A stretch of 64,000 nucleotides of DNA from an uncultured Nitrososphaerales archaeon (GTDB lineage Archaea; Thermoproteota; Nitrososphaeria; Nitrososphaerales; Nitrososphaeraceae), in contig CAVPXM010000036.1 of assembly GCA_963709405.1 (NCBI GenBank), positions 32,001 through 96,000 of the forward strand, written 5' to 3'. Under the pieces are notes generated by a model. That model did not search any database. It had not been told where the DNA came from and was given only the letters and a program-made list of their open reading frames with translations. Shown here piece by piece: positions 1,712 through 64,000 of the stretch. A program made the position numbers and the translations under genes. How positions within the stretch are numbered: the first letter of the stretch is position 1; each line of letters opens with the position of its first letter.

Positions 1712-2229
1712 CGTCAAGAAAAACCCATTTATTTTTCAATTTTCAAGTTACAACTCGTTCGCTAATAGTCCTGATGAATGAACACATTATGGATTATTCC
1801 AGCGAGTTTCACGACATCATGGTATAAAAATTTATGTTACAATTGTCTATAGATTAATAATGTAAACGGAATTCCTTTATGTAGGAACGAATTAGTAATA
1901 TGACCAAATTGTAGTGTTATTCACGTTATATAAAAAGACTTGCTCATTTATATTACGTTTGGCCAAATTCATATACATCTTATTTTTAGGTGATTATGAA
2001 TCGCCAATTTGAAAACTAAAATAATCTATGACGAATGTCAGTACCTATGAATTAAGAAAGTCACGGGATTGCAAATTACATCATGACTTTGATACAACGA
2101 AACCAATGGCAAAAATTTGATACGAACGTGACAATGCAAAATTTATGGTATAGTACCGAATCGATAATGTTTAATACCCAAACTTTTGAATGGTGTGATC
2201 TCGATATCAGTACTGTGTGACAATATCAC

Positions 2230-2630
2230 GCATGAATTCAACTCAAATACATTATTGAAGAAAAATAATGGTGCAGTTCTGTCAAATTAGAATTGAATTT
2301 GTATGCATAAAATGTGCAATTTGTTGGAATTATCATTGGGCACATGAACAGATTAAAAATCTGGGTTTTGACCATCGATATATACTTCTAAACATACTAA
2401 TCCTCTTTCCAGCAATTCTTCCCCTTCTCACGTTCAATCAATAGTTTACGAAGAAAAAATCATTATTACTGACAAATATCTTTGATAAAAAAGTAGTCGA
2501 TGTGTACGGGACAGAAATACAACCAATCTACAACTACCTTAGATGTCGTCATGAATTCTCATTGCATGGTTTGGAAGCACTTAGAAGAAATTGTACGTCG
2601 ACATCCCCAAAATTCGACGATAGGTGTAAC
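2230..2630 (+). pseudogene. Degraded paralog of the Cys/His-rich protein at 51380-51799
   Basis: Manual translation gives IEFVCIKCAICWNYHW, VVDVYGTEIQPIYNYLRCRHEFSLHG and RHPQNSTIGV, matching FACIRCGYCWTCH, VDVFGKASEPICNYLRCHHKFLIHG and RHPQNRILGV; stops and frameshifts present. Confidence 0.7.
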
Positions 2631-2909
2631 GAAATGGATACTGGCGATATAATAGCCAATCTACCTGTCTTAACATAACATCAACATAATGTAGATAGTA
2701 ACTAAGATTATCAGAAATTGATAATGTTACCGCTAATTAGAATTCATGCAAGAATAGAAAATTTTGTCCACGTTTTTATTTAATAGTAGATTAAAATTAT
2801 TAAACATAATAACTCCATTTTAAATGTAATGTTCAGAATTGGTGTAGCATTGTTGAAATTATCAAACGATGGATTAAAACTTAAATATAACTAAAATCTT
2901 TCTATAATA

Positions 2910-3161
2910 ATGAGCAAAGATTCAAACAGGAAATATGTAACAATCTCCATGATTGCAATAATAGCGGTATTGATAGGAACCTTGTCAATAAGCCAGGTAT
3001 TACAACCGGTATACGCTCAAAACACTACTGGTCAAATGGGTCAAAAAATTGGGCAAGCTGCTGGGAATGTATCTGGATCAGTCAATAAGACAGGCAACCA
3101 GTCAGCAAATCCACTGGCAAAAGTTGGCGAAGCACTAAAAGGTATGTTCGGCGGCAAATAA
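2910..3161 (+). CDS. Small secreted/membrane-anchored protein
   Basis: Basic N-terminus, hydrophobic helix, VYA-Q signal-peptidase-like site, G/Q/N-rich tail; TATA-like element upstream. Confidence 0.7.
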   Translation: MSKDSNRKYVTISMIAIIAVLIGTLSISQVLQPVYAQNTTGQMGQKIGQAAGNVSGSVNKTGNQSANPLAKVGEALKGMFGGK

Positions 3162-3216
3162 CCTACTTTTGTTGTAGGTACCTATCACTACTTGCAGTAG
3201 TGAGGTAGATTTTTTT
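3161..3216 (+). terminator. Double hairpin followed by a T-tract
   Basis: ACCTAC/GTAGGT and TCACTAC/GTAGTGA stems, then a T-run, directly after the stop codon. Confidence 0.45.
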
Positions 3217-3991
3217 AAACGGCTTCTTTAAGAAGTAATTACTAAATTAAGCTGTCATGTTTTTATTAAACTGGCGTTAATAACAGTTTCTCATATATAA
3301 CAAGGGGCTTGCGTTCGTAATCGCACTAATATTCAATATAACCACCTCACATTAATCATTTTCGTCATCAATAAAATGAAAAATAGTAGGTTTAATTTAT
3401 GACCAATGTGTGAGCTAGCTGAGAATTAGTTTTGAACTTGATTCGTGATTCGTGTGGATTATCTCGATGGTTCTCTTGATCGTTAAGAGAAGGTAATTTG
3501 TGTGGGCTAGCTATTATTTATTAATAGTACAATAAGACGAAGGAAATTCGCAGTACAGACCTGGTACACCTAATCAAATAAGAGAAATCCAGCTAGCTTC
3601 CAATTTATGTCCCATTGGTTGACAAAAGCCAAATATTAAATGTTGAGAGGATCAAACAGGAAGATATTACTTAACTGAGATCTTCACATTCCTGTATTGT
3701 ACACGCAACGGTGCTATAGTAACAGCAGTTGATTCGTTGGGAAAAAGTGAATAACAATGGGACTGGGTGCACAATAATAGTGTTACGGCTATTCGCACAA
3801 GGAGTAGCTTAATTTATCAATGCAATAAATAATGGAATTAGAGAATCTGCGAATGACTTAACAACTTCCAAAATACCAATTTCAGTAGGATACCAAGTTG
3901 TATCCATATCATTTGACAGAACAGGAGAGTGGCAATCTTAATAAGCAAGTAAATATTCACAGTTATATTACAAAATAGGAGTGCCTGTCAA

Positions 3992-4231
3992 ATGTCTAAT
4001 AGTATGGAAAATACGGATGATGAAGAACATAAGGAGAGTGGCAACTTACCTAAATTATCAGCGGACTTTCAGTGTTCTGTTTGTGGGTCAATATTCACCA
4101 CCGATCAAGATAGAGAACAACACCTGAAAAAAGAAGCTGATGGCGATTTGCATGAGGGTAGTACCTCTGAAGATATTGAAATTGCTAGGAATCAACAAGA
4201 ACTGAACAAAAATCGTATGCATTATGTATAA
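3992..4231 (+). CDS. Small C2H2-like zinc-finger protein
   Basis: FQCSVCGSIFxxxxDREQH; the last His ligand appears replaced. Confidence 0.65.
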   Translation: MSNSMENTDDEEHKESGNLPKLSADFQCSVCGSIFTTDQDREQHLKKEADGDLHEGSTSEDIEIARNQQELNKNRMHYV

Positions 4232-5500
4232 ATTTGCATACTTTTATTGTTGTCCATATATAAGACTCCACAAACAGTGAATTCGTTCGATATGTTAGGC
4301 TAATAGATGCTATATATCGTGTGGAGATTCAATACCGCTGCTGATGGAAAGGATAATGTTGTGATCTGCTCGGATATTGTGCATTGTCAGAATATATTAC
4401 AACTGCTCTAAAAGTACAAGGGGACCATATACTGTGTTCGAAAAATTGCGTTGAATTAGTATAAACTGCACTAGACGTGCTATACTATATTACGAAAATA
4501 TTATAATTCATGATTTTTCATGTATATGACTGTATGAACGAAATTAATTAATAATGCAATATCTGACAAATGGAAAAAAATGAAAATGATGTGGTAACAC
4601 AATCACAGCAGGGATCTCTTTGGTTGAGAATATAGATAAATGTGACATAATAAATGCAATTAATCAATGATCTATATAAATACTATAAAAAAGAATTATA
4701 GTATTTAATAGGGTATAAAACATATAGAATATTTATATCCTCAATATCTTTTATCTGGTTCAGTTATTTAGTGACAATAAGATAATTTGCCTCAATCTAG
4801 AACATGATCCTGATCGTAGAATCCCCACCCGTTTTTTAGATCATATGTTACAAATTCGGAGCATGTGTTGACATTATAAAAAACGTTATCATTCTAAATA
4901 TTACCATAAAACAGAGCACGGTAGTAAATAATCGAATTTCTGGCTAAGATTAAGGTACAACCAGCTACGTTAGATCAATATAGGAGGTAATCATGCATAT
5001 ATACATCCTACCTTTGGTTTCTCGGTGTAGATAAGTTTCAGATATACCTAAAGCAGTTTGATGTTTAAGAGTGATAGACGAAGTGACAAATTTAACAATG
5101 AGCTCAGAAGAATATTGTGTTAAAATATGTTGATCCTATCAAAATACGGCTCTTGTTATTAATTAGGCTATATTACGTATTGTTCTATTTAGAACGTCAT
5201 GAATTATATCTATTCAATCCAAAAGCAACTTCGCAGAACTTTAGCTCAACGTCCCAAAACATAATAATTTTAAAAGTCTTTCGAATATGACATTTTGTAC
5301 GTCATGATTGGATTTGTAATAAATGTCTAAACTATTGATAATATGATATATAATTACTAAATAATATTTTTCTTATGATTAAAAAGTTTAAAAGTATATC
5401 TGAAAAATGCATTTTTTTCTTAAACGCCATGATGAATAATGCTAGAGAGAATTTGAAATGTTGGATAGTAAGATATAACTTCCTCTAATCGTTTAATACA

Positions 5501-7022
5501 TTGTTTGTGACAAGCAAGGACACAGAGCAGCCAGGGCATGATATATGTCCATTATGTGGAAAGATCTTAACTAGTCGCCATGAAAAGTCCTCATTTGTAG
5601 AATATACAATTGATGGGGTTAGTTATAGATTTGACTCAAAGGATTGTGCAATTATGTTTAAACGGTTTTTGAGTGTGTATGGTAACGATTTTAAGCGTTT
5701 TTCTGGGCAACAGCAATATATTTCAGATCCTTTTTGGGATAAAGCAATTCCTAAGGAGCATGAAATTAATGAGATAGAGGAAGAGCGACTGAAGAATATA
5801 TCGGGCACAATACAGGAAAAATCTAACCAACATATTGTTGTTATTTCAGATCCCCTTGAAATACAGCGAGCTTGGTATTAATCTTGTAAGATCTGCCAAA
5901 GAAGATATCGCGATAATATTCTCTACGTCTAACGCATTTCGTAGACAATTGTGTATTGGGGGAATTCAATTCTTAGAAGAAGTAAGGAAATCTAATAAAT
6001 ATGTAAATATTAGACTTATAACACCTGTAAACGATGAAATTAGGAAGATTTCAGTAGATTTGAAGAGAAACTTTGGAATTGATGTTAAACATATAGTTGA
6101 TTCTATGCAATCAAAGATCACACTAGTAGTAATTGATAGAAAATTTTCTTTGGCGGTAGAACTAAAAGATGATACAAAAGATAATATTTATGAGTCAGCA
6201 GGGTTAGGAATTTATTCCAATCATAAGTCAACAGTTTTGTCCTATATTTCAATATTTGAAAGTCTTTGGAAGGAATTGGAATTAAATGAACATGTAGCTG
6301 ATCTTTGTGAGCAATTGAAATTTAAGGAAAAGATGCAAACAGAATTTATCAATATCGCAGCTCATGAATTTAGAGCGCCTATTCAACCAATACTGGGCTT
6401 GGCTGAAATCCTCCGATCTAGAGAAAAAGTAGATATTGAAAAACAACAGGAACTCTTGACGGTTATTATCAGAAATGCAAAAAGACTAAAGACTCTCACA
6501 GAGAATATTTTAGATATCACGAGAATTGAAAATCAACCTCTTATTCTACATGAGCAGATTCTTAATATCGAAGATGTCATATCTGATGCGATACAAGATA
6601 TAAATAGTCAAGTAGATTACGAAAGAGCAAATGTTAAAATATTATACAATCCAGTAAGGAAAAACAATGGAATAAGACTTGTGAAAGCTGACAAAGGAAG
6701 ATTAATACAAGTCCTTTCCAATTTGCTTGATAATGCAGTGAAGTTTACTGAGGAAGGAACGATATCGATTAATCTTGAGGAAAATACTATCAAAAATGAA
6801 CTCGTGGTTAGTATTATAGATACTGGGATAGGGATTAGTGCCGACATCAAACCGTTATTATTCACAAAGTTTATGACAAAAGCAGATAAAGGGACAGGTC
6901 TTGGGTTGTATATCTCCAAGAGTATTATCGATGCACATGGTGGCAGGATGTGGGCTGAAAATAATATCGACGGGAAAGGAGCAACTTTTAGATTTAGTCT
7001 ACCGTTAAGAACCAATAGTTAG
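5501..7022 (+). CDS. Sensor histidine kinase with N-terminal TRASH/YHS-like metal-binding domain (one frameshift near 5866)
   Basis: CPLCG...IDGVSYRFDSKDC; H-box AAHEFRAP, N-box NLLDNAVKF, G1 DTGIG, G2 GTGLGLYI. The two ORFs join as DPLEIQ|ELGINLV if one base is removed. Confidence 0.85.
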
Positions 7023-7175: not shown

Positions 7176-8063
7176 TTAGATAGATTTTGTTATCAAATTC
7201 CTTACTGCCTTAAGAAACTGCAGTTGGGTTATTGGTTTTCTAATAACGTTATCATGAGTCACATCTGGAAATATCTTTACTAATTCTTCAGCTGCGTCAA
7301 GAGCAGACACAAAGAGCACTTTGACATCGTCATCTATTGCCTTAAATGTCTGATAAATCTGTATACCATTAAATTCTGGTATTCTAATATCTAATACTAC
7401 GAGATCATAATAAACGGAATTCTCTACGTTGTTTTCAAGGAAAGCCTTTAATGCTTCATATGGATTAGTATATCCATCCACGCTATACCCTTCATTTATT
7501 AGGAATGACTTGTAAGTGAATAGTACATCCATTTCATCTTCCACTATCATGATCTTGCAAGGTTTTTGTCCTTGTTGTCGATGCCTATCAATTTTTGGGA
7601 CTTTTTCTCTTATTCCTGTCATCTTACTTGATGAATAATAATGATCTTCCTTCGTAAGGATGTCTTTAATTATCTTATTTTTACCTATTATGACATCGAT
7701 AAATTTTTCTCGATCTTCCTTTGGATATTCATCATAGAGTGAGTCAATTGCCTTAAGTTTCAAATGATTATCGGCTGCGTTTTCACCTATCATTTGCAAA
7801 TAGTAAAATACCTTGCCCAACGAAGTCAGAGAATATTTTCGATTCAATTTGCTACCCTTCGATCTCTTCACTAATCCTGTATCCAATAGTTTTGATAATG
7901 TCTTATAATACTGCTTACGAGTAAGATTTAATTTAGTCCTAATGTTTTGACTATTATATCTTTCATTCTCATCGCGGCGAACAAGCGTATTAAGTAGAGT
8001 ATGAACAACTGGATTAGAGAGAATTTTATAGATATCAGTGATGACGATGAACTTCTTTTGCAT
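7176..8063 (-). CDS. Response regulator, N-terminal winged-HTH plus C-terminal receiver domain
   Basis: LTRKQYY...LLDTGLV...YSLTSLG wHTH; IMIVEDE, DLVVLDIRIP, FVSA, RKP receiver motifs; convergent with the kinase. Confidence 0.85.
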   Translation of the reverse strand: MQKKFIVITDIYKILSNPVVHTLLNTLVRRDENERYNSQNIRTKLNLTRKQYYKTLSKLLDTGLVKRSKGSKLNRKYSLTSLGKVFYYLQMIGENAADNHLKLKAIDSLYDEYPKEDREKFIDVIIGKNKIIKDILTKEDHYYSSSKMTGIREKVPKIDRHRQQGQKPCKIMIVEDEMDVLFTYKSFLINEGYSVDGYTNPYEALKAFLENNVENSVYYDLVVLDIRIPEFNGIQIYQTFKAIDDDVKVLFVSALDAAEELVKIFPDVTHDNVIRKPITQLQFLKAVRNLITKSI

Positions 8064-8697
8064 GAGCTACACCATTAATGATAGTGTAAACTACAATAAT
8101 ACTATTACATAAAATGAACGGTTTTCAGACAGCACTGTATTTATATTAGCGAACTTGTTAATGCAATAAGAATAATTATTCTACATCCGGTCATACCTAT
8201 CTTTCTTGATAAGTTATGACAGTTCAAATACAGTCGAAAGAAACATTACAAACGATCGCATGATACAGACTAATATACGTACGGTCTTTAGGTATTTTTA
8301 TTAATTACCAATATGATAATAGAATATTTATAAAATGGAAAAATGCCCCAAATTTACAATCACAGCTCTAAACCAGTACTGCTACTATTATTTAGATATG
8401 TAGTCTTTTTTTGCTATCTTAATATCTCTAGCGATAACTTTAAATATTGTGAAAAAATAAAAATTTACAAACGAGCAAGTAAATTTCAAATAGATTCATT
8501 ATTTAGGCATAGATCAAGTAAAATTGAGACGTTAGTAGGCAGACATTCTATGATTTAGTAATAATTTGCTTCTACAAATTAAATGATGACAACTCCAAAA
8601 TCAATATAATGTGAAATTGGTTTCGATTACTCGATGATCTGGTATAGGAATGAATAATCTAATATTAACCCCATCATATTTGATTCATTAGCTAGAG

Positions 8698-9379
8698 GGC
8701 TCTGTAAAGTTAAGATAACAAATTATTGTTATGATGACTAACAAATAGATCCAACCATTTTTGTATGTGTTGCAATTTACACTTACTTTTTCTACAAGGA
8801 AAATAATCATCGAAATATTCTGTTCTATCTTTGATGTATTGTACCGTCCTTTCTATGATACTTTTCTCATATGGAGAATGGATGTGATGGTGCAGTCTCA
8901 AGAATCTACAAGCCTGTGGATACCATGTACCTCCATCAGTTGAAACAGGATAGATGTTCTCCATATCTTTTTACAAGGTTTAATATAAAACGTTCTGCAA
9001 CAAACATGTTTCTCTCTTTTGATATGCTTATTTGAAGGATTTCTCGGTTATCATTCATTTTCAATGGCTATCCATAACCAGATATATTCGGAACCAACTT
9101 TAATGATAGTTTCATCAATTATAAATTCGGTAATACGTATCTATCTTTCTGGAACTTAACATCTCTGGTTTATATTTTTGAATCCAGTCTCTGATGGCAG
9201 TATGACTTCTTTTAACAAATCTAGACACAGCTTTGGATGTATTTCTTAATGAAAGACCAAGGAAATACAGATACAGAGAATATGCTATATCCTCAGGTTC
9301 TGTTCTCTTTCTTATTTGACACATCATAACCTATATCGGAGTCATAAAGCTATAGATTTTTCCTTAACTTTACAGAGCC
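8698..9379 (-). mobile_element. IS6-family insertion sequence, frameshifted transposase
   Basis: Perfect 17-bp terminal IR GGCTCTGTAAAGTTAAG (8698-8714 / 9363-9379); IDET, STDGGTWY and IERT DDE pieces split across frames. Confidence 0.9.
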
Positions 9380-9427
9380 GAAAAATTTGTAATAGCTTTA
9401 AGTATTTTAAAACCCTAATATAGGATA

Positions 9428-9668
9428 ATGGACAACGGAAGTGTTCAACGGTTAAGCATTGCACCAGGTCTTAGGAACTTGCTAGAAACAGTATGGATTA
9501 TTTACAATTAAATCCGTTGCAAATCAGAGCCAAGGAGAAATTGCTGTCTTGTTGGGAATTGATACATATGTTGCAGGAATAATTATTCAAGCTGCAAAGA
9601 AATCTCTAAAAGATACTGAACACAATATGGAAAATACAGCTGCAGGAGTTATTAGTACTATCCATTAA
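9428..9668 (+). pseudogene. Small helix-hairpin-helix (RadA N-terminal-like) protein, frameshifted
   Basis: MDNGSVQRLSIAPGLRNLL / FTIKSVANQSQGEIAVLLGIDTYVAGIIIQAAKK. Confidence 0.5.
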
Positions 9669-9834
9669 TATATTATAATATCCATTTTTTATGTCACTCC
9701 ACCATCAGGTATTGCTAATAGAAATTAGTACAAATGTAATGTGTCGACATTGATTCTCTATCGATATGTATAGTAGCATAATACATTTTATAATACGAAA
9801 CTTTGAATAACATTATATCTGTAATATATTTGAT

Positions 9835-9948
9835 ATGAAATGTGCTTGTTGTGGAGGAGATATGTTAAGAAATAAGGAATTGGAAAACACTATAATTTAC
9901 AAATGTAAAGAATGTGGTCTTAGCAATACCGAACTAAGAAGCAAATGA
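9835..9948 (+). CDS. 37-aa zinc-ribbon micro-protein (not in ORF track)
   Basis: MKCACCGGDMLRNKELENTIIYKCKECGLSNTELRSK; two CxxC knuckles; TATA-like element upstream. Confidence 0.7.
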   Translation: MKCACCGGDMLRNKELENTIIYKCKECGLSNTELRSK

Positions 9949-10509
9949 TATTCGCAGGTACATTATTTTTATATGAATTTGAGCATATCTTCTACGATAG
10001 TACATATCTTTTTAACAAGTATTCTATGTTAACGCACACCCAAATTGCTCATTCTCCGATCAAGACAAAATAAAGAAATATGAAATTATCTAGTTGATTG
10101 GATTGCTCTGAATAGATAAACCCGTATATAACAATGCATAATTGAGTACTGAATTATCTAGCTCAATTACGATAGAAGGCCAGAAAATTATACAAATTAT
10201 TTTAGATTAACAAAGTTAATCGAGAGTTATTTATGATGGTTTATAATATGATACATATGATACAAAGTCTTTCCTATTTCAGCAGTACAATTACAAGATT
10301 TTATCTCGAACATATTCCCATAGTTACAAAAGAAGGAAAGTCCTACGATTAAGTCAGTTACTTTTGATCCAGCAGTATCATTGTCGGTGACAATAGCGAA
10401 GCACATTACAACTGATAATAACGATTTAAAATGAATTTGTTATATACATGAGAACTTACTCAACTTACATTTGATTAACGTGATCAACTAAAGAAGATAA
10501 TACTAGCTT

Positions 10510-11460
10510 ATGAAAAATCCTTTCAAGAAATCAAACAGGAGGACGCCCGAAGGGGAACCTCTTGAACATGTAGGATCAGGCTCTGGTGCGGGCTCTAAAA
10601 AACTACTAATTATCGCAGCTATGACGACATTTATCGTTATTATTTTAGTGATGTCTGAATCAGTAGTTATCGTGCAGGCAGGACATCGAGGAGTTGTTCT
10701 ATATGCTGGTGCAGTCGAGAGCAGAGTATTAGGGGAAGGTGTGCACTTCATAATACCATTTGCTGAGCAGGTTATACCATTAGAGGTACGCACACTCAAG
10801 TTCGTGGCTAATGCGTCAGCCGCTTCAAATGATTTACAACAAGTACAGACGGTAATAGCACTAAATTACCATCTGAATCCAGCTGATGTAAATAAGATCT
10901 ACCAACAGCTGGGTCCAGACTATGCAGATAGAGTAATAGCGCCGACTATACAAGAATCAGTTAAAGCAAGTGTAGCGAAATACAATGCTGAGGAGTTAAT
11001 CACAAAAAGAGCTATTGTTAAAGATGTTATAGCAAATACGATAAGAAACTCCTTATCAGCAAAAGACATAGTGGTAGAGACAATATTTATTACTGATTTT
11101 AAATTCTCGCCAGCATTTTCTACTCAGGTTGAAGATAAAGTGGTAGCTTTTCAAAAGTACTTGACAGAACTGAATAATTTGAGAGCAATTCGAGTAGTAG
11201 CTAACCAAACAGTTGTACAGGCACAAGCACAGGCTAGAGCTAACATAGCAAAGGCTGATGGAGAATCACAAGCAATTAAAATTATTACATCACAATTAAG
11301 ACAAGACCCTCAATATCTTCAGTGGCAAGCGATCAATAGATGGAATGGACAAATGCCTTATTCTTTAGGTGGACAAGGCGCAATCCCATTTTTCCAACTA
11401 CCGCAATACTCACCTCAATCGTCAGTATCTGGATCACAACAACAAAATCAATCTAAGTAA
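10510..11460 (+). CDS. Prohibitin/SPFH (band 7) family membrane protein
   Basis: TM helix then VxAGHRGVV, LGEGVHFIIPF, SNDLQ, YNAEELITKR, AKADGE, WNGQMP. Confidence 0.92.
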   Translation: MKNPFKKSNRRTPEGEPLEHVGSGSGAGSKKLLIIAAMTTFIVIILVMSESVVIVQAGHRGVVLYAGAVESRVLGEGVHFIIPFAEQVIPLEVRTLKFVANASAASNDLQQVQTVIALNYHLNPADVNKIYQQLGPDYADRVIAPTIQESVKASVAKYNAEELITKRAIVKDVIANTIRNSLSAKDIVVETIFITDFKFSPAFSTQVEDKVVAFQKYLTELNNLRAIRVVANQTVVQAQAQARANIAKADGESQAIKIITSQLRQDPQYLQWQAINRWNGQMPYSLGGQGAIPFFQLPQYSPQSSVSGSQQQNQSK

Positions 11461-11715
11461 ATTAATAAAGAGTTGGCATTATTCCAGCCTTGAATCCAAA
11501 CAGCATATACCGCCATAGTTTGAATAACAAAATCAGACTAGCAGATGAACATTATACAAGTACACGGTCAATGATGCAAGATGAAGCAAAATAAACACTA
11601 ATGCTGAGTATATTATGCTACTAATTACGTACAAATGAAATCAAACATAATAATGAAATATCTAATGTACTCAATGACGAATACTATAAAACCTTGATAG
11701 TATGTTCTATTAAAT

Positions 11716-12363
11716 ATGAAAATCGTCGACCTGACTCTTGAGATTACTTCCAATATGGTCATTTTCTCTGGGGACCCTACCCCTATTTCTATAGAATGGT
11801 CCAAATTTGACATTCAAGGCTATGTTTCAGAATGTTTGTTTTTGAGTACTCATACAGGAACTCACATGGATGCTCCATTTCATTTTAGTCCTAATGGATT
11901 GAGTATAGATCAGATTGAAGTCAACAGATTCATCTGCAATGATACACTACTTCTAAGAATAGAAAAAGATTGCAATCAATTGATTACCACCGATGATATC
12001 TTAGGCAATACCAAAAATGAAATTAAGGAAAAAGATACTGTGGTACTGCATACAGGTTGGGAAACACGGAATAAGGAAAAAGATATGTACCTCAAAAATA
12101 ACCCAGGTCTATCAGATGATGCGGCAGAATATTTGGTAAAGAAAAAAGTTAATGCCGTAGCCATAGATGGTCCGAGTATTGATGTGGGTATTAACAGAGA
12201 ACTTCCTGCACATAAAATTCTTTTATCAAATAATATTTTAGTAATTGAAAATCTATGCAATTTGGATAGATTGAATAATCAAAATATTACAGTCATAATT
12301 ACTCCATTAAAACTTGTGGGAGCTTCTGGCTCACCAGTACGGGCAATCGGAATTGAAGAATAA
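11716..12363 (+). CDS. Cyclase family metal-dependent hydrolase (kynurenine formamidase-like)
   Basis: HTGTHMDAPFHF motif, IENLCNL, GASGSPVRA. Confidence 0.92.
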   Translation: MKIVDLTLEITSNMVIFSGDPTPISIEWSKFDIQGYVSECLFLSTHTGTHMDAPFHFSPNGLSIDQIEVNRFICNDTLLLRIEKDCNQLITTDDILGNTKNEIKEKDTVVLHTGWETRNKEKDMYLKNNPGLSDDAAEYLVKKKVNAVAIDGPSIDVGINRELPAHKILLSNNILVIENLCNLDRLNNQNITVIITPLKLVGASGSPVRAIGIEE

Positions 12364-12401
12364 ATAAACATGATCGATCATTAGAACCGTTTGGGCGACC
12401 T

Positions 12402-12632
12402 ATGACATCACACGTAACAAAATGCATTGCATGTACACGGAATAATTATTTGGACTCCAAATACTGTACCTATCATTATGATGCATTCTTAAATTTAAAA
12501 CAACAGTACAAGATATGGGTTGAGGCATATGGTCAAATTTCTTGGCAAGAATATCTGAATAAACTGATAGTGATGAATGGAGTGGGGGTTTGGGTAAAAG
12601 AAGTGATTGCCGTAGAATCAAAAAAATCTTAA
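12402..12632 (+). CDS. Small Cys/His-containing hypothetical protein
   Basis: CxxC...YCxYH, WxxAYG; follows the cyclase gene in an operon-like arrangement. Confidence 0.7.
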   Translation: MTSHVTKCIACTRNNYLDSKYCTYHYDAFLNLKQQYKIWVEAYGQISWQEYLNKLIVMNGVGVWVKEVIAVESKKS

Positions 12633-12639
12633 ATAGATT

Positions 12640-12923
12640 AGTCAGTCATTTAATTATTTCAATCCGTCTGGATAGAAATTCCCGTGAGAGTACAAGAGAT
12701 TGAGAGAAGGGAACAACAAGTTCAATTGAATTAGTGGATGCATCCCATACATATCGGATTCGCAGAAAAACTAAAACGAGATTCCTATAAAGTTTCAGTT
12801 TTGAGTCGTGCCGGGGAGAGTAGGCAACTCTATTAAGCCTCAATTTGGCTTACCTGCGGACTTGAACTTATTAGGTATGTCTTTATTCGTAAATGTGTAT
12901 TATTTAATTGACCATGACTGACT
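12640..12923. ncRNA. Candidate structured ncRNA (or MITE), ~284 nt
   Basis: Ends pair (AGTCAGTCAT-TTAATTA with TAATTGA-CC-ATGACTGACT); several internal hairpins and a GC-rich three-way junction; no credible protein. Confidence 0.5.
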
Positions 12924-13113
12924 TTAGATTCTAGTCTCAGGATCGATGATAGGAATGAATATTAAAATAATACGACAATCGGCTATGAAATGGTAACAAC
13001 AACAATATCATTAAATTCATTGGTAAAAGCTCTATTGACTATAAAGTAATCCTATGTGCTTGCACCTCATAAGATCAGATGCGGTCGATTAAGTCTACTA
13101 AAACCATTAATTG

Positions 13114-14421
13114 TTAATTTCTCCAGATGAAGAATCCGTCTTTTCTGGTCACAGTATCTATCGAACGGGATAAAAATTTGCTTTTTATTAGTGTGCTCTG
13201 ATCACCTACAATAATTGTCTTCCTTTTACTCCTAGAAAAGGCGACACATGATCTCGGGATATTTACAAAACCTATAGCCTTTTCTAGGTCAGTTTCATTG
13301 TTTGACCTCACCATTGAGACGATTGTGACCTCTGATTCCTGTCCCTGGAACTCGTCTATTGTCCCAATGCGTATCCTCCTATTGTTCCCATTGTGGAGAT
13401 GAAACTGCAGCATTCTTTCTTGTTGCTTGTAGGGAGTAGTAATTATGACATCATCAATTCCCATGTTCAGAAGCCCATCAATTATCTCTTTGACTAACGA
13501 AATCTCACCAATATTTATAAAATGTTTTTGCTCCTGACTGTTACTATTTGTATCTACAAACACTATTCTCTTTTCATGGTTCAGAATTTTTGCCAGATTA
13601 TTGTTCGTTCCACTATAATCATTCTTTGCAATATCTACTGTTGAAATTTCTTTCACTGATTCATCTGCCTTCAATTGATACTGGTAATTTGGATTTATCA
13701 GGTCCAAAATATCTTCATTAAACCTATATTCTGTTTTCAGTAACGTAGTTTCGTATTGTTTCAAAATAGAACTAAAGAGGCTGTATCCGATAAAATCATG
13801 TGAAGCAGGTGGCAACTGTTTATCATCTCCTATTACTAGTATTTTCCCATTATCATGCCTCAGCGATGAGAATAGCATTGCCATTGTGTCAAGTCCTACC
13901 AAACCTGTTTCATCCACTATGACTGCTCCAACTTTCGTGACTTTTACCAAATCTTTTGCGCTATAAGTCGTAGTAAGTATAATTTGTGCATTCTGAAAAT
14001 ATTTTCTACCTATTTCAGATCTATTAAATGAATTCATTTCATTGCTATCTACCAGAATATTGTCCATCGTATAGGTTCGAAGATACGGATACGATAATTC
14101 TAAATCCATTGTATTACCGTACCTAATTATTGGTCCTTTTAGAAACGGTAGATTAGCTCTATGGAGGAGAGAGTCTATCTTTGCTAGTATGCTATTAACC
14201 ATCACGTTTGTTGGAGCCGTGACCAACACTGGAGAATTTTCAGCCAATAGATCAAAGCAGCAATGAGAAATGACTGTTGATTTGCCTGTTCCTGGCGGTC
14301 CAGTAACTGGGACAGTACTCTCCTTGTTAATTCTATATCTCGCAGCCTTCTGATCGGCATTTTCGTAATTTAGAAACTTATCTAAAGAATTATTATTATT
14401 ATTATGGTTGCTGTTAGTCAT
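13114..14421 (-). CDS. Superfamily 1 (Upf1/Dna2-like) helicase core, AAA_11/AAA_12
   Basis: Q motif NADQ, Walker A GPPGTGKS, TAPTN, VDETG, GDDKQLPP, EYRF, TPYKQQ, TIDEFQGQE, VRSN, VAFSRSK. Confidence 0.92.
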   Translation of the reverse strand: MTNSNHNNNNNSLDKFLNYENADQKAARYRINKESTVPVTGPPGTGKSTVISHCCFDLLAENSPVLVTAPTNVMVNSILAKIDSLLHRANLPFLKGPIIRYGNTMDLELSYPYLRTYTMDNILVDSNEMNSFNRSEIGRKYFQNAQIILTTTYSAKDLVKVTKVGAVIVDETGLVGLDTMAMLFSSLRHDNGKILVIGDDKQLPPASHDFIGYSLFSSILKQYETTLLKTEYRFNEDILDLINPNYQYQLKADESVKEISTVDIAKNDYSGTNNNLAKILNHEKRIVFVDTNSNSQEQKHFINIGEISLVKEIIDGLLNMGIDDVIITTPYKQQERMLQFHLHNGNNRRIRIGTIDEFQGQESEVTIVSMVRSNNETDLEKAIGFVNIPRSCVAFSRSKRKTIIVGDQSTLIKSKFLSRSIDTVTRKDGFFIWRN

Positions 14422-14427
14422 ACCGAT

Positions 14428-15969
14428 TTAAATATCGTATTCCTCTTCAATTGCGTTGACCTTATGTTCAAAATCTTTTTGTTTGTCTCGCTTGCTATAC
14501 ATTAAATCAGTGTGATCATATTTTTGTTCTTCAATTGTATCAGTTATTTTTTGTATCGGAATCGAATTCCGATACTGAAGTATAACATCGGCATAAGGTG
14601 AACGCCTAAAGAAGTTATCCAGAAATCGCATGCTAGTGAGCCCACCACTAAAGTTAAATCTATCAATTGTAATCATTCTAAATTGGTGTCTGTTTTCATG
14701 CATCAGATAGTACATGTCGCCTCTATGAAATCTAAGTTTGACCGATCTTGAGGCGAGGTTTATATCTATAATCGTTGCAGTAGGATTGCTACCAAGGTTT
14801 GGATTGCCATCTGATACGGTCACTTGATCCCCTACGCTAAAGTCTATGAATTGGCCAAAGGATTCATCTCCCATTAAAGTAACTGTCTGATCATGAAAAT
14901 CAAAAGTTTCCGTGATTAGAGTGAGATTAGTTATCGCAGACCCCTCAGCCTGTCGTTGCTTTGCATTCCTCGAATCGACATATACCTTCCATCTATCTTC
15001 ATGAGATATTTCTTCTCTAATCCTTTTTGAAACATTGAATTCTGTTCTTCTTCTCACTATTTCATTTTCATTAAGTTTGCTGCTATGCGCAAAGGCCCAA
15101 TCTAAGCAACCTTCTTTTAATGAACAATTCTGACAATAGCCAGTAATAGCAGGAGATATTTCAGACTTCCAGAATCGTACATATTTGTCAATGGATTCGT
15201 ATACCCTTGTAAAATTGAATTTCTTTCTGTGACTATCTCTATCAGCAAATTGCCATATGTATTCTGGAGGTGATTGTAAATTTAGCGCCTTCATGAGTAA
15301 GAGTGCTTCAGCATCGGCTTGAAGCTTCCATGTAGATGAGGGAGTCTTAAACCTGCCAGTTTTGATCTGTGTTACTTGTACGAGATTTTTTTCTAAATTT
15401 TGTAAACTTTCAGAGCTGATATATGAGTTCTGTTCAACATATGGAATTCTAATTTTTATTAGATCAAGTCTACCTTCAAGTGGAATATGAATATCGCGTA
15501 TAGTGAATTCAGGTCTGATCACTGATTGTTTATTTTCCGATTCATCCACAATGAGTTTGTCTACGAGTCTATCTCCCCTGGTATAAAGGTCATCCATAAT
15601 AGGGTCAAATGGTTTGTCAACCCCAGCTAGAAGAAATCGTTTCCAGTTTGTGTCTATATCAACCTTGGCATTATGTTCGAAGATTCCGATACCATGTTCC
15701 TTTTCTATGGCATGTCCTCTTTTTGAAAGGTTTATTATTTCCAGCATTGACTTTACAGTGATTCTGTGAACTGCGTTTCCTATCTCACCGCTTGCAGTAT
15801 ATTCATTTGATTCCATTCCAAAAAATGAGATATTGTAGGCTCCGCGTTCGCACAATGCCATTTTTGCAATGGCACCAACTCTTGGAATAATTGTAGGTTC
15901 AAGATGTCGGATAATATCATTTGAACTTGATATTTCTGAATTTGTACTACTAAGATCAAAAACCATCAA
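14428..15969 (-). CDS. Cas4/Dna2-like PD-(D/E)xK nuclease with 4Fe-4S 'staple' cysteines and a C-terminal beta-barrel
   Basis: N-terminal C(ER), GNAVH, PEF...LEGRLD...QIKTG, WKLQ, C-x2-C-x5-C (CQNCSLKEGC), then an FSVGDQVTVS barrel. Confidence 0.8.
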   Translation of the reverse strand: MMVFDLSSTNSEISSSNDIIRHLEPTIIPRVGAIAKMALCERGAYNISFFGMESNEYTASGEIGNAVHRITVKSMLEIINLSKRGHAIEKEHGIGIFEHNAKVDIDTNWKRFLLAGVDKPFDPIMDDLYTRGDRLVDKLIVDESENKQSVIRPEFTIRDIHIPLEGRLDLIKIRIPYVEQNSYISSESLQNLEKNLVQVTQIKTGRFKTPSSTWKLQADAEALLLMKALNLQSPPEYIWQFADRDSHRKKFNFTRVYESIDKYVRFWKSEISPAITGYCQNCSLKEGCLDWAFAHSSKLNENEIVRRRTEFNVSKRIREEISHEDRWKVYVDSRNAKQRQAEGSAITNLTLITETFDFHDQTVTLMGDESFGQFIDFSVGDQVTVSDGNPNLGSNPTATIIDINLASRSVKLRFHRGDMYYLMHENRHQFRMITIDRFNFSGGLTSMRFLDNFFRRSPYADVILQYRNSIPIQKITDTIEEQKYDHTDLMYSKRDKQKDFEHKVNAIEEEYDI

Positions 15970-16071
15970 TCGTGCACCATTCTTATTTTCTTAGTATTCT
16001 GTGGCATTAAATGGTCAGGCTGTGCAGGCAAAGAATATAAGGATTAGCAACTGATTAAACTTATCACATTG

Positions 16072-16098
16072 ACTAAACATACTAATCATACTAAACTT
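16072..16098 (+). promoter_or_regulatory. 3x 9-bp direct repeat next to a TATA-like box, in the divergent promoter
   Basis: ACTAAACAT ACTAATCAT ACTAAACTT running into TTATAGA, ~20 nt before ATG 16117. Confidence 0.4.
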
Positions 16099-16116
16099 AT
16101 AGATGAATCTCTGGAA

Positions 16117-16848
16117 ATGTTACGAATCCATATTGCGCCAGTTGGGTTTGAGGTAGATCGCATCGTTTTACCAGCCAAGAATATGAAAGCCGACCGCATA
16201 TGGCTGATCATCCACAGTGACCCTACCGATGATGCAGGACAACCTTTTGGTAAGTTGATAACCGAACAACTGGAGGCCATCAATATCGAATACTACATTG
16301 AATACGCAGATCGAACAGACTTATTTGACACACTTAGGGCTTTAAGGAAGATAATTTTAAGAGAGAAAAATAATGCCATACTTGTTAATGTTTCTGTAGG
16401 AAGTAAGATCCAAGCAATTGCATCCATGATGGCATGTATGATGTTCAAGGACGAGGTAGACATTATGCCTTATTATGCAGTACCTGAAAAATATGCGACA
16501 ATCCCAAGAGAACAAGAGACTGTTGGCTTGAAGAAGGTTCTGAAGCTACCAGAATATAAGATAGAAACTCCACCAAATAATTTAATCAGGTGTTTGGAAA
16601 TTATTCATCAAAGAACCGGCAACCGGATTGCAAACAAAGACTTGAGGGACCAAGCTTTAGCACAGCAACTTATTCATGTAGAACGTCATAAGAATAAAGA
16701 GCAGTCAGCATATATGGCGCTAAAGACCAACCTACTTGATCCGCTATTAGAATGGAAATTCATAACGGTTGAGAGAGTTGGCAGACGTCATGATTTAATA
16801 TTAACAGAAGATGGACTAAATGTGTTGAAATTTCTTCATTCGACATAG
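16117..16848 (+). CDS. DUF6293/HFX_2341-like protein (CARF-like Rossmann domain plus wHTH)
   Basis: LRIHIAPVGFEVDRIV, VNVSVGSKIQAIA, YYAVPEKY; C-terminal wHTH ending GRRHDLILTEDG. Likely start MLRIH. Confidence 0.82.
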   Translation: MLRIHIAPVGFEVDRIVLPAKNMKADRIWLIIHSDPTDDAGQPFGKLITEQLEAINIEYYIEYADRTDLFDTLRALRKIILREKNNAILVNVSVGSKIQAIASMMACMMFKDEVDIMPYYAVPEKYATIPREQETVGLKKVLKLPEYKIETPPNNLIRCLEIIHQRTGNRIANKDLRDQALAQQLIHVERHKNKEQSAYMALKTNLLDPLLEWKFITVERVGRRHDLILTEDGLNVLKFLHST

Positions 16849-19210: not shown

Positions 19211-19711
19211 ATGTCAACATCAGAAAGTAAAACATCAAAAGATAGCACAAAGATTACGAAAGATGTCAATGTAACTCTATTCGATGTAGCAAACGAAAAC
19301 TTCACAAAATTGGTAAATGAATCTGCAAAGGTTCAGCCAGAGTATGCACAAGCAATCTCCAATTTGCAGCAAGAGTACATAGAAGCATCTAGGAATGCCA
19401 TTCAGACAACAACTTCAGTTCAAAAGCAATTTGCAAACAGCAACAGCAGTTTCAATAACGTCATCATCTCAGACACAACAGCACCATACATTCAGAACTT
19501 GGTAAAACAATCAAATGATTTTACGAACAACATCATTAGAATGACAGACATCAACAATCAGCTAACAATCAACGTATTAAACGCATTAAGAGAAAATGTG
19601 AAAAACTATAGTAGGACAGTCGAAGCTACTGCTGAATTTAACTCTAATCTGGCAAAAGCTTGGGCATCATCCTATTCGTCGGTCCAGCAACAACTTACTA
19701 GAGGACAATAA
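19211..19711 (+). CDS. Amphipathic helical phasin-like protein
   Basis: N/Q/T-rich helical sequence with QPEYAQAISNLQ; paralog of 38285-38752. Confidence 0.65.
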   Translation: MSTSESKTSKDSTKITKDVNVTLFDVANENFTKLVNESAKVQPEYAQAISNLQQEYIEASRNAIQTTTSVQKQFANSNSSFNNVIISDTTAPYIQNLVKQSNDFTNNIIRMTDINNQLTINVLNALRENVKNYSRTVEATAEFNSNLAKAWASSYSSVQQQLTRGQ

Positions 19712-19799
19712 ACAAATAGGAATACCCATATTTTTTAGGTACTGTTGAGTCAACTAATTTCAGCGTATTAAGAATCGTACACAACTTGTTATTCATTTA

Positions 19800-20695
19800 G
19801 AGCCTATCCCAAAATTATCCTCCTGTAAATAAGAATACAACAACCCAAACATACTAACGCAAAATAGTTTTCTAATTTCTTTTCGTATCTAACTAAAAGT
19901 TTTCTGAACTTGTTGTGCCAGGAGTTAGTTCTTTCTACAACCCATCCTCTTCTTGTATTATGCTTACCGCTCTTTTGTTATTGGTTGTTCGCCTCTATGT
20001 CGAATATTTGGTAAGTATCCTTTCTTGATAACTTCGTTTTCAATCTCCCGAAAGTCATATCCTTTATCAAGACAGAGGTTCTGGTTCTTTCTATAAATCT
20101 TAGAGGATGGTCTTTTAACTACGATATTATCCAGTGTATTTATAGCAGCCTTCATATCATGTGTATTAGTCGCAGTTACAACAACAGATAATGGTATACC
20201 TTGTCCATCAGTTAATACATGATGACGTTTTGTTCCTAGCTTACTCTATCTGTAGAATAGTGCCAGCCAGTCATTTCCCCCCTAAAGGTGTCTTTATACA
20301 TACACTATCAAGTGACTGCCATCTCCATTGGATGCCTACTATACCATCATATACTTTTAGCAATCTAGTCCATAATCTTTGAAATACCTTAGATGTTGAC
20401 CATTGTTGGAATCGTCTATGGCAGGTATGATCCTGAGCCATACTCCTTTGGCAACATCTTCCATTGACATCCAGTTCTTAAGACAAATAGAATGCCATCC
20501 AGTACCTTCCTAAATGATATTGCTGGACGTCCTATGGTATTCGCTGGTTTTTCTGAGGGAAGTATCAATCTTATTTCATCCCATAACTTGTCAGGAATTC
20601 TTTTGACAGTTGGAAGATACCTGATCCTATCGTAAGTCACACTTATGAGAAAAACTCTCTCAAGCTATATGTCTATCTATTTTTGGGATGGGTTC
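19800..20695 (-). mobile_element. IS5-family element (IS427/IS1031-like), degraded transposase
   Basis: IR GAGCCTATCCCAAAA / rc GAACCCATCCCAAAA flanked by TA; GILFVLRTGCQW, LDKGYD and RWVVERT motifs. Confidence 0.88.
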
Positions 20696-21331
20696 TAACT
20701 CAAATATGGCTGGAACATTTGGATATCACTGCCTATACCATCCAACTACAATGAAGGGAATAATACAAGTACATTGACTAACAAAAAATTGTGATTATGT
20801 TTTCCTGCAATTTCTTTGAAGTGGATCATTTTACTCTTCCATAAAAAGCCGAGTGGGTCTATCATATAGTGGTGTCTACAGATAGAAAATATCATGAATA
20901 AATTGCAAGTCGTATAAGCGATAGAGAGAAAAAGAATAGCGACTCTCGTCAGATTCACTCCAGATCATTCTGGAGGACGACCGCCACCTCCGCCCACCAG
21001 ATCCACCGTCATGTCCATGCCCTGAATGATGTGAACCAGAGTGGTGTGGCTATGCCGGTGTTGAGAAAGTAAATACTGATAGTATCTACACTGCTGCTAC
21101 TCTCGTTACTATGGTAACGTTCAATAATAGTGCTTTTACCCCGTAGTGCATATGGTTTTATCAGTTATTGAGAATTCAAAAGTCTTAATGTTAAATTTGT
21201 TAGAAAAACCTCTCTTTTAAGCGAAAAATCTATTGTCATAGTTGCTGTTGTCATGATAGGATCAAAAGTTAAAGAAAAAAGAAATGGAATTTCTTTCTCT
21301 CGTCTACCTACTTACTATTCTGTGTCTGCTC

Positions 21332-22250
21332 CTAAACATGCACGTTAACAAATGGACAGTTAACTATTACTCCCGCAATGTTAGTACTTAGCTTTCCAGC
21401 TTGGGCTGCAGATGTAATTTGACTCAATGAACTCAGGAATTCAGCATGCGATGGATCCTTCCATGTTGTAGCCTGTATTCTCCATAATGGACTGTAGCCT
21501 GTATCACCTACATTTGCAGATGCAATGCTTGCTTGAAAACCCATAGGTCCAGTTCCTTTGATTCCGTTTGCAAACACGTAAAGATCAGACGATGCTCCAG
21601 AAAGTAACGCTGCACCTGTCTTGTTTACAAATGTCACGCCTAATGCATCAGCTACTTTCTTGATAGATGCGTCAGTTGCTATATAATAGATTGTTGAACC
21701 ATCAGGAGCAAATCCTCTATGTCCTAGAAACGTGATCTGCATTTTCTTAATATCGATGTTCAGAACTTGTCCTCCACCATATGCCGTCAGATCAGTTAAA
21801 GTTTTGTCACTTCTTTCTTTCAACGAACCGCCATGCCACTGCACAAAAGGACAATTAACTACCGCATCTGATGGAGTTATAGTTAATTCTCCGTTCTTCT
21901 GTGCAGATAGTATATCAGCTTCTGATTTAATCTCCCTTGGACTAACTCCTTGTTTCCATTCTACATTGTTAATTCTCCACAAAGGACTATATGCTGGATC
22001 GCCTGGCTGAGAATCTGCTACGTTAGGTTGAAAACCTAAGGGACCAGAACCTTTAATGCCATTCCCAAATACATAGATATTTTCGAGTGATTGTGGTGGT
22101 GCATTCTTTAATGCTGGTGTATATGATACTCTTGAATGAGTAGAGTTTGTCAAGTGATCTGCTAGCCCTTTATCTGAAGCTTCCGTTGATATATAGAATA
22201 CCTCGAAACCATTAACATATCTTTCGATTTCTGAGACAGGAGGAGTAATT
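21332..22250 (-). pseudogene. Two-domain thaumarchaeal protein (YIxTxAS...GPxGFQ...YSPLW repeats), 5'-truncated
   Basis: Two internal repeats ending VNCPF; frame extends upstream (VFYISTEASD) but no proper start or signal peptide. Confidence 0.65.
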
Positions 22251-62933: not shown

Positions 62934-62984
62934 TCCCTACACAATCAGAAAACCAAACAATGCGTCAATAGAGGATACGATCTC

Positions 62985-63783
<799 letters not shown>

Positions 63784-63827
63784 AATACAAGGAGGAATGA
63801 GATATTTTGGTAACTGAAAATACTACA

Positions 63828-64000
63828 ATGATAACCGATAACATCTTCTCGGGACTGAAGGTAGTCGATCTTTCGAGCTTTATCGCTGGTCCAGGCGCAG
63901 CAGTGATCTTGTCCGACTTCGGCGCCGACGTAATCAAGGTCGAACCACCCAATGGCGAGTTGTGGAGGATGGTGAATAGGGTTCAAGCGTACGTTCCGAT
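63828..64000 (+). CDS. CaiB/BaiF class III CoA-transferase (partial, runs off window)
   Basis: FSGLKVVDLSSFIAGPGAAVILSDFGADVIKVEPP. Confidence 0.88.
   Translation, partial: MITDNIFSGLKVVDLSSFIAGPGAAVILSDFGADVIKVEPPNGELWRMVNRVQAYVP

Follow-up and report, generated by a model that had tools for sequence, protein, structure and literature searches.

A stretch of 64,000 nucleotides from an uncultured Nitrososphaerales archaeon (NCBI GenBank assembly GCA_963709405.1, contig CAVPXM010000036.1; hereafter ‘the window’) carries three adjacent genes that probably form an accessory cassette, comprising an enzyme of two subunits laid out like Dna2 and a divergently transcribed, exchangeable regulator that joins a CARF domain to a winged helix-turn-helix (wHTH). 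A preliminary description of this locus had proposed a split pair of Dna2-like nuclease and helicase, a divergent regulator of the DUF6293 family and a downstream structured RNA. All three open reading frames (ORFs) are intact and lie where that description placed them. As it had also stated, the first two genes are co-oriented and 6 nucleotides apart, and the DUF6293 gene is head-to-head with them over a short promoter of 99 nucleotides. The nuclease and helicase genes constitute one operon and are co-transcribed. The features of the locus are as follows.

16069–16848, plus strand: ORF of 259 amino acids, CARF-wHTH regulator of the DUF6293/HFX_2341 family
15970–16068: divergent promoter region of 99 nucleotides between the head-to-head nuclease and DUF6293 genes
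14428–15969, minus strand: ORF of 513 amino acids, nuclease, subunit 1
15070–15882, minus strand: nuclease domain, about residues 30–300 of subunit 1, placed by conserved motifs
14650–14967, minus strand: β-barrel, about residues 335–440 of subunit 1, placed by structure match
14422–14427, minus strand: 6-nucleotide spacer from the nuclease stop to the helicase start
13114–14421, minus strand: ORF of 435 amino acids, helicase, subunit 2
12640–12924: 285-nucleotide element proposed as a ‘structured RNA’, judged not to be a member of the system

The nuclease gene probably starts at an ATG one codon inside the listed TTG. Nucleotide homology with a relative from the same genus (G004), whose helicase is 90% identical to that of the window, covers 13115–16839, which is exactly the three-gene block, beginning at the helicase stop and ending where the CARF gene ends. 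The flanks of this block vary between genomes, and the CARF gene is frameshifted in G004.

The first protein had been described as having one N-terminal cysteine, a C-x2-C-x5-C motif and a PD-(D/E)xK core. Its cysteines bear this out: C40 and C279-x2-C282-x5-C288 are invariant in 18 of 18 aligned relatives, and C-x2-C-x5-C is present in all 136 relatives scanned. Also invariant in the 18 are H68, E165-G-R-x-D169 (E165-G-R-L-D169 in the window), Q201-x-K203 (here Q201-I-K203), Q217, D219 and E221. The nuclease core is present with one alteration. Although H68, D169 and K203 are in place, in 135 of 136 relatives Q-x-K replaces (D/E)-x-K as motif III, such that the second metal-binding acid is glutamine and the core must be regarded as a variant. 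The string Q217-A-D-A-E221, which includes two acids specific to the kind of nuclease found in the window (hereafter type 1), D219 and E221, is retained in 136 of 136.

Judged by these motifs, the first protein would contain a Cas4/AddB/Dna2-type nuclease domain whose one-plus-three cysteines are of the 4Fe-4S type. The Cas4 models of PADLOC match the window nuclease (E 4.2e-6) and 17 of the 18 aligned members (best E 1.2e-6), and Pfam Cas_Cas4 matches one of the 18, at E 0.17. Clusters annotated as PDDEXK_1/Dna2 are its look-alikes by protein language model (scores 0.97 and 0.89), which we treat as a lead only. No Pfam family matched the window nuclease at E up to 0.1, NCBIfam gave no match, and a sequence search of the PDB gave none at E up to 10. 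A phmmer search of 1.84 billion representatives yielded 53 relatives, all close. Since the longest of these has 525 amino acids, no fused nuclease-helicase form was seen among the 53 matches. A profile search for distant relatives returned the same 233 proteins and added nothing.

Downstream of the nuclease domain, the same chain carries a stalk, a β-barrel of the Upf1 1B type and C-terminal helices. The barrel, which the preliminary description had noticed, was both modelled and matched at about residues 335–440, and its blocks reach predicted local distance difference test (pLDDT) values of 58–87 in the full-length model. When this model was compared with 48,161 chains, mouse Dna2 (5ean_A) ranked first (Z 10.4, 170 residues aligned, model 57–448 to chain 152–569). 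The 1B barrel of IGHMBP2 (4b3g_B) ranked second (Z 9.0, root-mean-square deviation 2.2, 83 residues aligned, model 335–439 to chain 37–140), followed by Sen1, SETX, ZNFX1 and Upf1. The modelled barrel thus appears to correspond to the 1B domain of Upf1-like helicases as well as to the barrel of Dna2. In the model of the nuclease domain, D169 and Q201/K203 lie on consecutive core strands that are followed by a helix with Q217, D219 and E221, which is the canonical topology.

The second gene was said to encode a bare Upf1-type helicase core, and this is what was found. Its Pfam matches are AAA_12 (3.5e-35) and AAA_11 (1.8e-19), with nothing else of substance. The closest PDB sequence is IGHMBP2 (6e-18), with Sen1, Dna2 (4.6e-15) and then Upf1 behind it. 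Walker A (G41–T49), Walker B (D170-E171), GDxxQLPP and QGQE (Q359-G-Q-E362) are invariant in 16 aligned relatives. Because the chain starts at motif Q (about residues 19–27), it is without the domain 1B and stalk parts that Upf1-like helicases normally carry ahead of this motif in the helicase chain itself. Its sequence therefore suggests a superfamily 1B (SF1B) Upf1-like motor made only of RecA1 and RecA2, and the absent 1B barrel is located in the neighbouring nuclease protein. Residues 21–414 of the helicase align to residues 628–1025 of the Dna2 chain at the E value given above, and hence the two proteins together are collinear with Dna2. In PADLOC the helicase matches Mokosh MkoA best (2.2e-46), over the motor core only (profile positions 755–1081 of 1112).

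The two genes also travel together. The helicase directly follows the nuclease in all 17 public loci with room downstream, and in 19 of 20 testable loci once G018 and G021:C143 (yes) and G021:C128 (no) are added. A complex prediction of the nuclease with the helicase gave an ipSAE of 0.83, compared with 0.06 for the best of three controls, with at least 61% contact agreement between runs and a partner pLDDT of at least 83. Of the solved complexes, 58 of 80 attain the mark used for ipSAE, as do 2 of 110 mismatched pairs; these counts hold only roughly here since the alignments were supplied by the analyst. The predicted interface joins nuclease residues 102–121, 313–324, 374–380, 401–405 and 442–465 to helicase residues 131–223, such that the stalk, barrel and C-terminal helices of the nuclease chain would contact RecA1 of the motor. 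Collinear domain order and predicted binding both favour the split Dna2-like arrangement proposed in the preliminary description.

Several observations weigh against this reading. Neither Pfam Dna2 (PF08696) nor Cas_Cas4 matches the window nuclease; PF08696 matches 0 of the 18 aligned members, and nothing in a search of the whole genome. The AlphaFold models of the nuclease are of low confidence (mean pLDDT 51 at full length and 57 for the domain) because the family is shallow. The top-ranking Dna2 match has a root-mean-square deviation of 12.3. With the nuclease domain alone, no Foldseek match reached E 0.001. The leading rows are weak (E 0.04–0.5) and comprise ACE1, Cas4 SSO0001, AddB, Dna2, Cas4-Cas1-Cas2 and AdnAB, and the all-chain search puts Dna2 at rank 11 (Z 6.7) amid helical-bundle noise. 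These structure searches are consistent with a Cas4/AddB/Dna2-type domain but fall short of proof. The favourable complex prediction may reflect memory, given that Dna2 and Upf1-like structures have been solved as single chains, and we take it as a sign of likeness and not of binding. One locus, G021:C128, has a CARF gene and a nuclease but no helicase within 6 kb. The CARF gene is found at only 5 of 24 type-1 pairs; we regard DUF6293 as an exchangeable regulatory module and not as an obligate part of the enzyme. Finally, the invariant glutamine at a metal-binding position means that the nuclease may be inactive.

We regard as real a conserved, uncharacterised nuclease-helicase of split Dna2 architecture with an optional CARF-wHTH regulator. 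Among its closest known counterparts is Dna2 of eukaryotes and some archaea (mouse 5EAN/5EAW). Both have an Fe-S RecB-type nuclease, then barrel and stalk, then SF1B RecA1-RecA2, and both halves are collinear. However, Dna2 is one polypeptide, whereas the window pair is two genes, with the break falling after the stalk and ahead of motif Q. For motif III, Dna2 has E-x-K and the pair Q-x-K, with D169 retained. Also unlike Dna2, the pair has no Pfam Dna2 match, is accessory and patchy, and is paired with a CARF regulator. AddAB, AdnAB and RecBCD likewise combine multi-subunit SF1 motors with Fe-S RecB-type nucleases, but these employ SF1A (UvrD-like) or RecD motors with the nuclease fused C-terminally, in contrast to the SF1B Upf1-type motor and the N-terminal nuclease on a separate chain seen here.

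Among known defence systems, Mokosh consists of an MkoA-type helicase and a nuclease of the phospholipase D (PLD) family, and Hachiman and Gabija are other helicase-plus-nuclease pairs. The cassette resembles Mokosh in combining an SF1/SF2 motor with a nuclease in a small accessory operon and in the match of its helicase core to MkoA, and it differs in that the nuclease is of the Cas4 type, not PLD, and in that only the motor core matches. The solo Cas4-like nucleases offer a further parallel, being four-cysteine Cas4-type nucleases linked to helicases outside CRISPR loci; the links described in the available portion of that study are to UvrD (SF1A) and YprA (SF2) helicases (Hudaiberdiev et al. 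2017, PMC5704561). Unlike those pairs, the present one has an Upf1-like SF1B motor whose 1B barrel sits on the nuclease chain, and searches detected neither cas1 nor CRISPR genes. The pair is not described in the literature that we found, which did not extend to supplements or to the 2020 CARF classification, so an earlier mention is possible. A naturally split Dna2-type enzyme would be a simple model for the coupling of nuclease and SF1B motor by way of a barrel and stalk, and it comes from soil ammonia-oxidising archaea, in which few defence or repair systems have been characterised.

The cassette is accessory and was found only in Nitrososphaeraceae. A type-1 nuclease gene is present in 26 of 151 genomes of the family, spread over 8 of 18 genera. 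One genus has it in 13 of 21 genomes and three others in 0 of 21 each, and none was found in 24 further genomes of the order. Broken copies are present in G043, G020, G316, G318, L038 and L039.

The identification of the DUF6293 protein as a CARF-wHTH regulator was upheld by its family matches and by an intact ligand signature. It matches PF19810 (HFX_2341_N; 2.2e-33, 115.7 bits against a cut-off of 30), PF22665 (DUF6293_C; 8.7e-18, 65.1 bits against a cut-off of 27) and PADLOC ‘CARF3’ (1.5e-66), with weaker matches to the CARF domains of Card1 and Csa3. A search of PDB sequences with the CARF protein profile gave no Csa3 match. The segment N107-V-S-V-G-S-K113, which is the same in all 9 aligned homologues, corresponds to the CARF signature [DN]X[ST]XXX[RK] that follows strand 4, as defined in PMC4012209. 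At the level of sequence, therefore, nothing speaks against a nucleotide pocket. One member of the family has been studied, HFX_2341 of Haloferax, which the accessible text of that work describes as a global transcriptional repressor, also of cas genes, and as found in species without CRISPR-Cas (PMC11434293). The window regulator has its Pfam families and CARF signature in common with Csa3 and HFX_2341, but unlike them it resides in a genome without detected cas1 or cas10 and is physically paired with nuclease-helicase operons.

The count of 5 in 24 given above consists of 2 of 21 public type-1 loci with upstream sequence, plus G018, G021:C128 and the window. In 13 type-1 loci the place of the CARF gene is taken by a four-gene operon, in which a P-loop ATPase of about 410 amino acids (c1) and a protein of about 345 amino acids (c2) precede the pair; two further loci have a divergent P-loop gene. 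This operon, the more frequent arrangement of the type-1 pair, is seen at L025–L037 and L040 (for example, L037:4554–9828), with overlapping stop and start codons, and the C-terminus of its ATPase looks winged-helix-like when judged by eye only. Searches with c1 gave weak P-loop matches only, those with c2 gave none in Pfam, PADLOC, PDB or Atlas, and neither gene was found in the genome of the window.

A broader association emerges when DUF6293 genes are followed across 61 genomes. These contain 15 strong matches, of which 13 can be tested for a divergent neighbour, and in 12 of the 13 this neighbour is a nuclease or helicase machine. Four are type 1, seven are a second type or resemble it, and one is the nurA-herA-mre11-rad50 operon; two of the 12 are incomplete (G021:C128, nuclease alone; G021:C130, type-2-like nuclease only, at a contig end). 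A second, highly divergent cassette of the same architecture is present in the genome of the window itself (C42:40115–44093). Its PDDEXK-like Fe-S nuclease (489 amino acids) has C38/C40, H66, EGRID, the canonical D-W-K as D188-W-K190, and C-x2-C-x8-C, its Upf1-like helicase (447 amino acids) is 25% identical to that of the window (E 5e-21), and its divergent DUF6293 (CARF) gene product is 56% identical to the window regulator. A broken N6/N4 DNA methyltransferase gene adjoins this cassette. The distant type-2 nucleases retain D-x-K, whereas D219 and E221 are conserved in type 1 and not in type 2. The type-2 nuclease went undetected in 250 other genomes of the phylum. Kinship between the nucleases of the two types was sought by BLASTP, which found nothing, and by profile comparison, which aligned only the EGR(L/I)D motif without significance (E 0.03, probability 1.6%). 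The nurA-herA-mre11-rad50 locus lies in a different genus (G008:C34; L081 5224–14923), where genes for a GIY-YIG nuclease and an N6/N4 DNA methyltransferase flank the DUF6293 gene on its other side.

The preliminary description had also suggested regulation by cyclic oligoadenylate. This idea is weakened by the lack of detected sources of such a ligand and by the presence of the regulator beside so few pairs. Cas1 was not found in the genome, which is 91% complete, or in the loci examined, and models TIGR02577 and TIGR02578 for Cas10 (Cmr2, Csm1) detected none in the genome. The single SMODS match in this genome, considered as a candidate CD-NTase, is the CCA-adding enzyme. Given these results, cyclic oligoadenylate made by Cas10 is unlikely. 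The recurrence of one CARF-wHTH subfamily beside three kinds of nuclease-helicase machine, and the lack of detectable Cas10, Cas1 or CD-NTase in this genome, raise the questions of which ligand CRISPR-independent CARF regulators sense and of whether they tie DNA-end processing to infection or damage.

The analysis establishes how the genes are ordered, which motifs they carry, which families they match, how they co-occur and are distributed, and that the two proteins are predicted to bind; polarity, substrate, nuclease activity, ligand and role are inferences. Subunit 1 would dock on RecA1 of subunit 2 through its barrel, stalk and C-terminal helices. The motor would run along single-stranded nucleic acid in the 5' to 3' direction, the likeliest substrate being DNA that has a free end or a flap, and the strand would be threaded past the nuclease site and then cut. 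D219 and E221, on the next helix, are candidate replacements for the missing acid; alternatively, the site may be attenuated. DUF6293 probably controls the shared 99-nucleotide promoter, presumed to contain the operator, in response to a small and probably nucleotide-like ligand. This region holds an A/T-rich TATA-like box, AATATAAGGATTA, about 40 nucleotides ahead of the CARF start that is kept in G004, and its inverted repeats are short and imperfect.

As to the role of the cassette, we tentatively favour anti-invader defence, slightly ahead of repair, with roles other than defence or end processing accounting for what is left. Defence is indicated by the patchy distribution, the decaying copies, two highly divergent versions in one genome, regulators that are swapped between loci and DNA methyltransferase genes that adjoin two of the CARF genes. 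These traits are more typical of fast-evolving defence genes than of repair genes, and the CARF family of the regulator points in the same direction. Against defence, PADLOC identifies no complete system, the neighbourhoods are ordinary and are not defence islands, and no viral contig with a nuclease relative was found.

These last two observations fit an accessory, non-immune enzyme for DNA repair or end resection, functionally like AddAB, AdnAB or Dna2, which a Csa3-like regulator would turn on in a DNA-damage response. We consider this a serious possibility, though a doubtful one. In its favour, the same DUF6293 subfamily is divergent from nurA-herA-mre11-rad50, the archaeal resection operon, in G008, and canonical Dna2 is present in just 1 of 121 genomes of a phylum sample. 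In the parts of the Sulfolobus studies available, Csa3a directly activates herA and nurA by binding their promoters (PMC5587795) and regulates genes of the DNA-damage response (PMC7515695). Apart from the CARF family of the regulator, the features listed above for defence, including the absence of the type-1 nuclease from all 21 genomes in each of three genera, are what stand against a repair enzyme.

In both of these roles the nuclease would cut, and a further proposal is that its domain is catalytically dead and helps the motor only as a clamp, for threading the strand or for Fe-S sensing, with cutting done elsewhere. The nearly universal glutamine at motif III suggests as much, as does the retention of D-x-K in the distant type-2 relatives, and the nuclease-like domain of RecC is a precedent for a non-cutting role. 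However, H68, D169, K203 and Q217 are themselves invariant, and the equally constant D219 and E221 could take over, as a relocated active-site acid does in Cfr10I-type restriction enzymes. We think a dead domain unlikely. Similarly unlikely in its entirety is a bolder version of the defence reading, according to which the DUF6293 proteins of Nitrososphaeraceae are dedicated switches for DNA-end-processing machines (the two split Dna2-like pairs, which look unrelated, and NurA-HerA-Mre11-Rad50) that answer to a nucleotide signal made by neither Cas10 nor a CD-NTase. The pairs would then be a CRISPR-independent, CARF-controlled anti-invader effector in which Q-x-K is rescued by a relocated acid.

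It is improbable that the system is directed at RNA, with an Upf1/Mov10-like motor running on RNA, as proposed for Mokosh, and a nuclease that cuts RNA or R-loops. This idea draws on the MkoA match, on the names ‘helicase MOV-10’ or IGHMBP2 that sources give to relatives, and on the closest solved motors, IGHMBP2, Sen1 and Upf1, which act on RNA. However, the MkoA match is confined to the helicase core and a PLD nuclease is lacking. The order of domains follows that of Dna2, a DNA enzyme, and the partner is of the Cas4/AddB/Dna2 type, whose known members, in the portion of the survey available, cut DNA (PMC5704561).

The downstream element at 12640–12924 was counted in the preliminary description as a highly paired, structured RNA belonging to the system. 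The claim of pairing is moderately supported, in that the minus strand folds better than its shuffles (z = −3.5, 0 of 200 shuffles as good) but the plus strand does not (z = −1.8, 12 of 200 as good). The element is bounded by a perfect 10-nucleotide terminal inverted repeat. Its membership did not stand. There were no Rfam matches at the gathering score in the window, and only chance-level matches over 12300–13200 (E 0.34 or more, in a search to E 10). The element lies outside the conserved block and was found in none of 40 relatives, including G004, with which homology ends at the helicase stop codon. As a whole it is single-copy in this genome, and a 28-nucleotide hairpin-forming motif within it (12655–12682) has five genome copies with at most four mismatches and belongs to a dispersed repeat some 166 nucleotides long. 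A contig of a near-identical strain that covers 12402–13298 has three of its five listed indels inside the element, and it differs by 62 other letters and 11 gaps over 897 nucleotides; for the genes the figures are 15 in 593 and 21 in 842.

Because of these findings, we judge the element to be non-conserved intergenic debris that may derive from a repeat and does not belong to the cassette. A system of four parts, with the element serving as a guide, scaffold or regulator RNA, is thus very improbable, despite its terminal repeat, its minus-strand fold and an RNA-library contig of the near-identical strain that crosses the region (contigs only, with DNA carry-over possible). Other identities were also considered and rejected. 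The RNase P and signal recognition particle RNAs are both located elsewhere in the genome (C55 and C63), and a many-copy miniature inverted-repeat transposable element is ruled out because only the 28-nucleotide motif recurs. Scans of 12300–13300 for terminators and promoters gave nothing above shuffles. The 166-nucleotide repeat is present on at least eight contigs, with the 28-nucleotide motif on C6, C16, C32 and C45 as well as in the window, and the genome abounds in dispersed short repeats of many families, 100–340 nucleotides in length.

Contigs from three RNA libraries (three studies) map to the three genes at 90–99% identity. Those from runs X17 and X19 cover parts of the genes, with none over 12400–13750, where contigs cannot show absence, and an X16 contig crosses that interval. 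Since contigs are no proof of transcription, we take them as a weak hint only that the three genes are expressed.

The window, of about 35% G+C, is part of contig C36 of a 4.83-Mb genome (G000) assembled in 100 contigs, and the relatives in public records are Nitrososphaeraceae metagenome-assembled genomes. PADLOC recognised no complete system in the window. Neighbouring genes encode ArgZ-like, histidine kinase, response regulator, Band 7, cyclase and thioredoxin proteins. The Band 7/SPFH and cyclase genes just downstream (10510–12363) have close paralogues elsewhere in the genome, for Band 7 on C77 (93%) and C55 (77%) with a broken copy on C70, and for the cyclase on C6 (74%). Convergent with the helicase is a small Cys/His-rich ORF of 76 amino acids (12402–12632, plus strand; C-x2-C ... 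C-x-Y-H) that is single-copy, has a weak WRC match (E 0.01) and is absent from related loci.

Elsewhere in the window, long stretches at 1711–5501, 8063–10503 and 19711–21332 are without ORFs of at least 90 amino acids, in keeping with the broken genes mentioned in the preliminary description. A stretch of about 150 nucleotides at 19799–19950 is present twice in a G004 contig at 82–87% identity, and it adjoins a transposase-like ORF fragment of 63 amino acids (19964–20155) that has no Pfam match. The last 2 kb (62001–64000) reach a G+C fraction of 0.52, compared with about 0.35 elsewhere, and carry what by eye appear to be ferritin-like and acyl-CoA-dehydrogenase-like ORFs; this segment may be foreign DNA or an assembly join.

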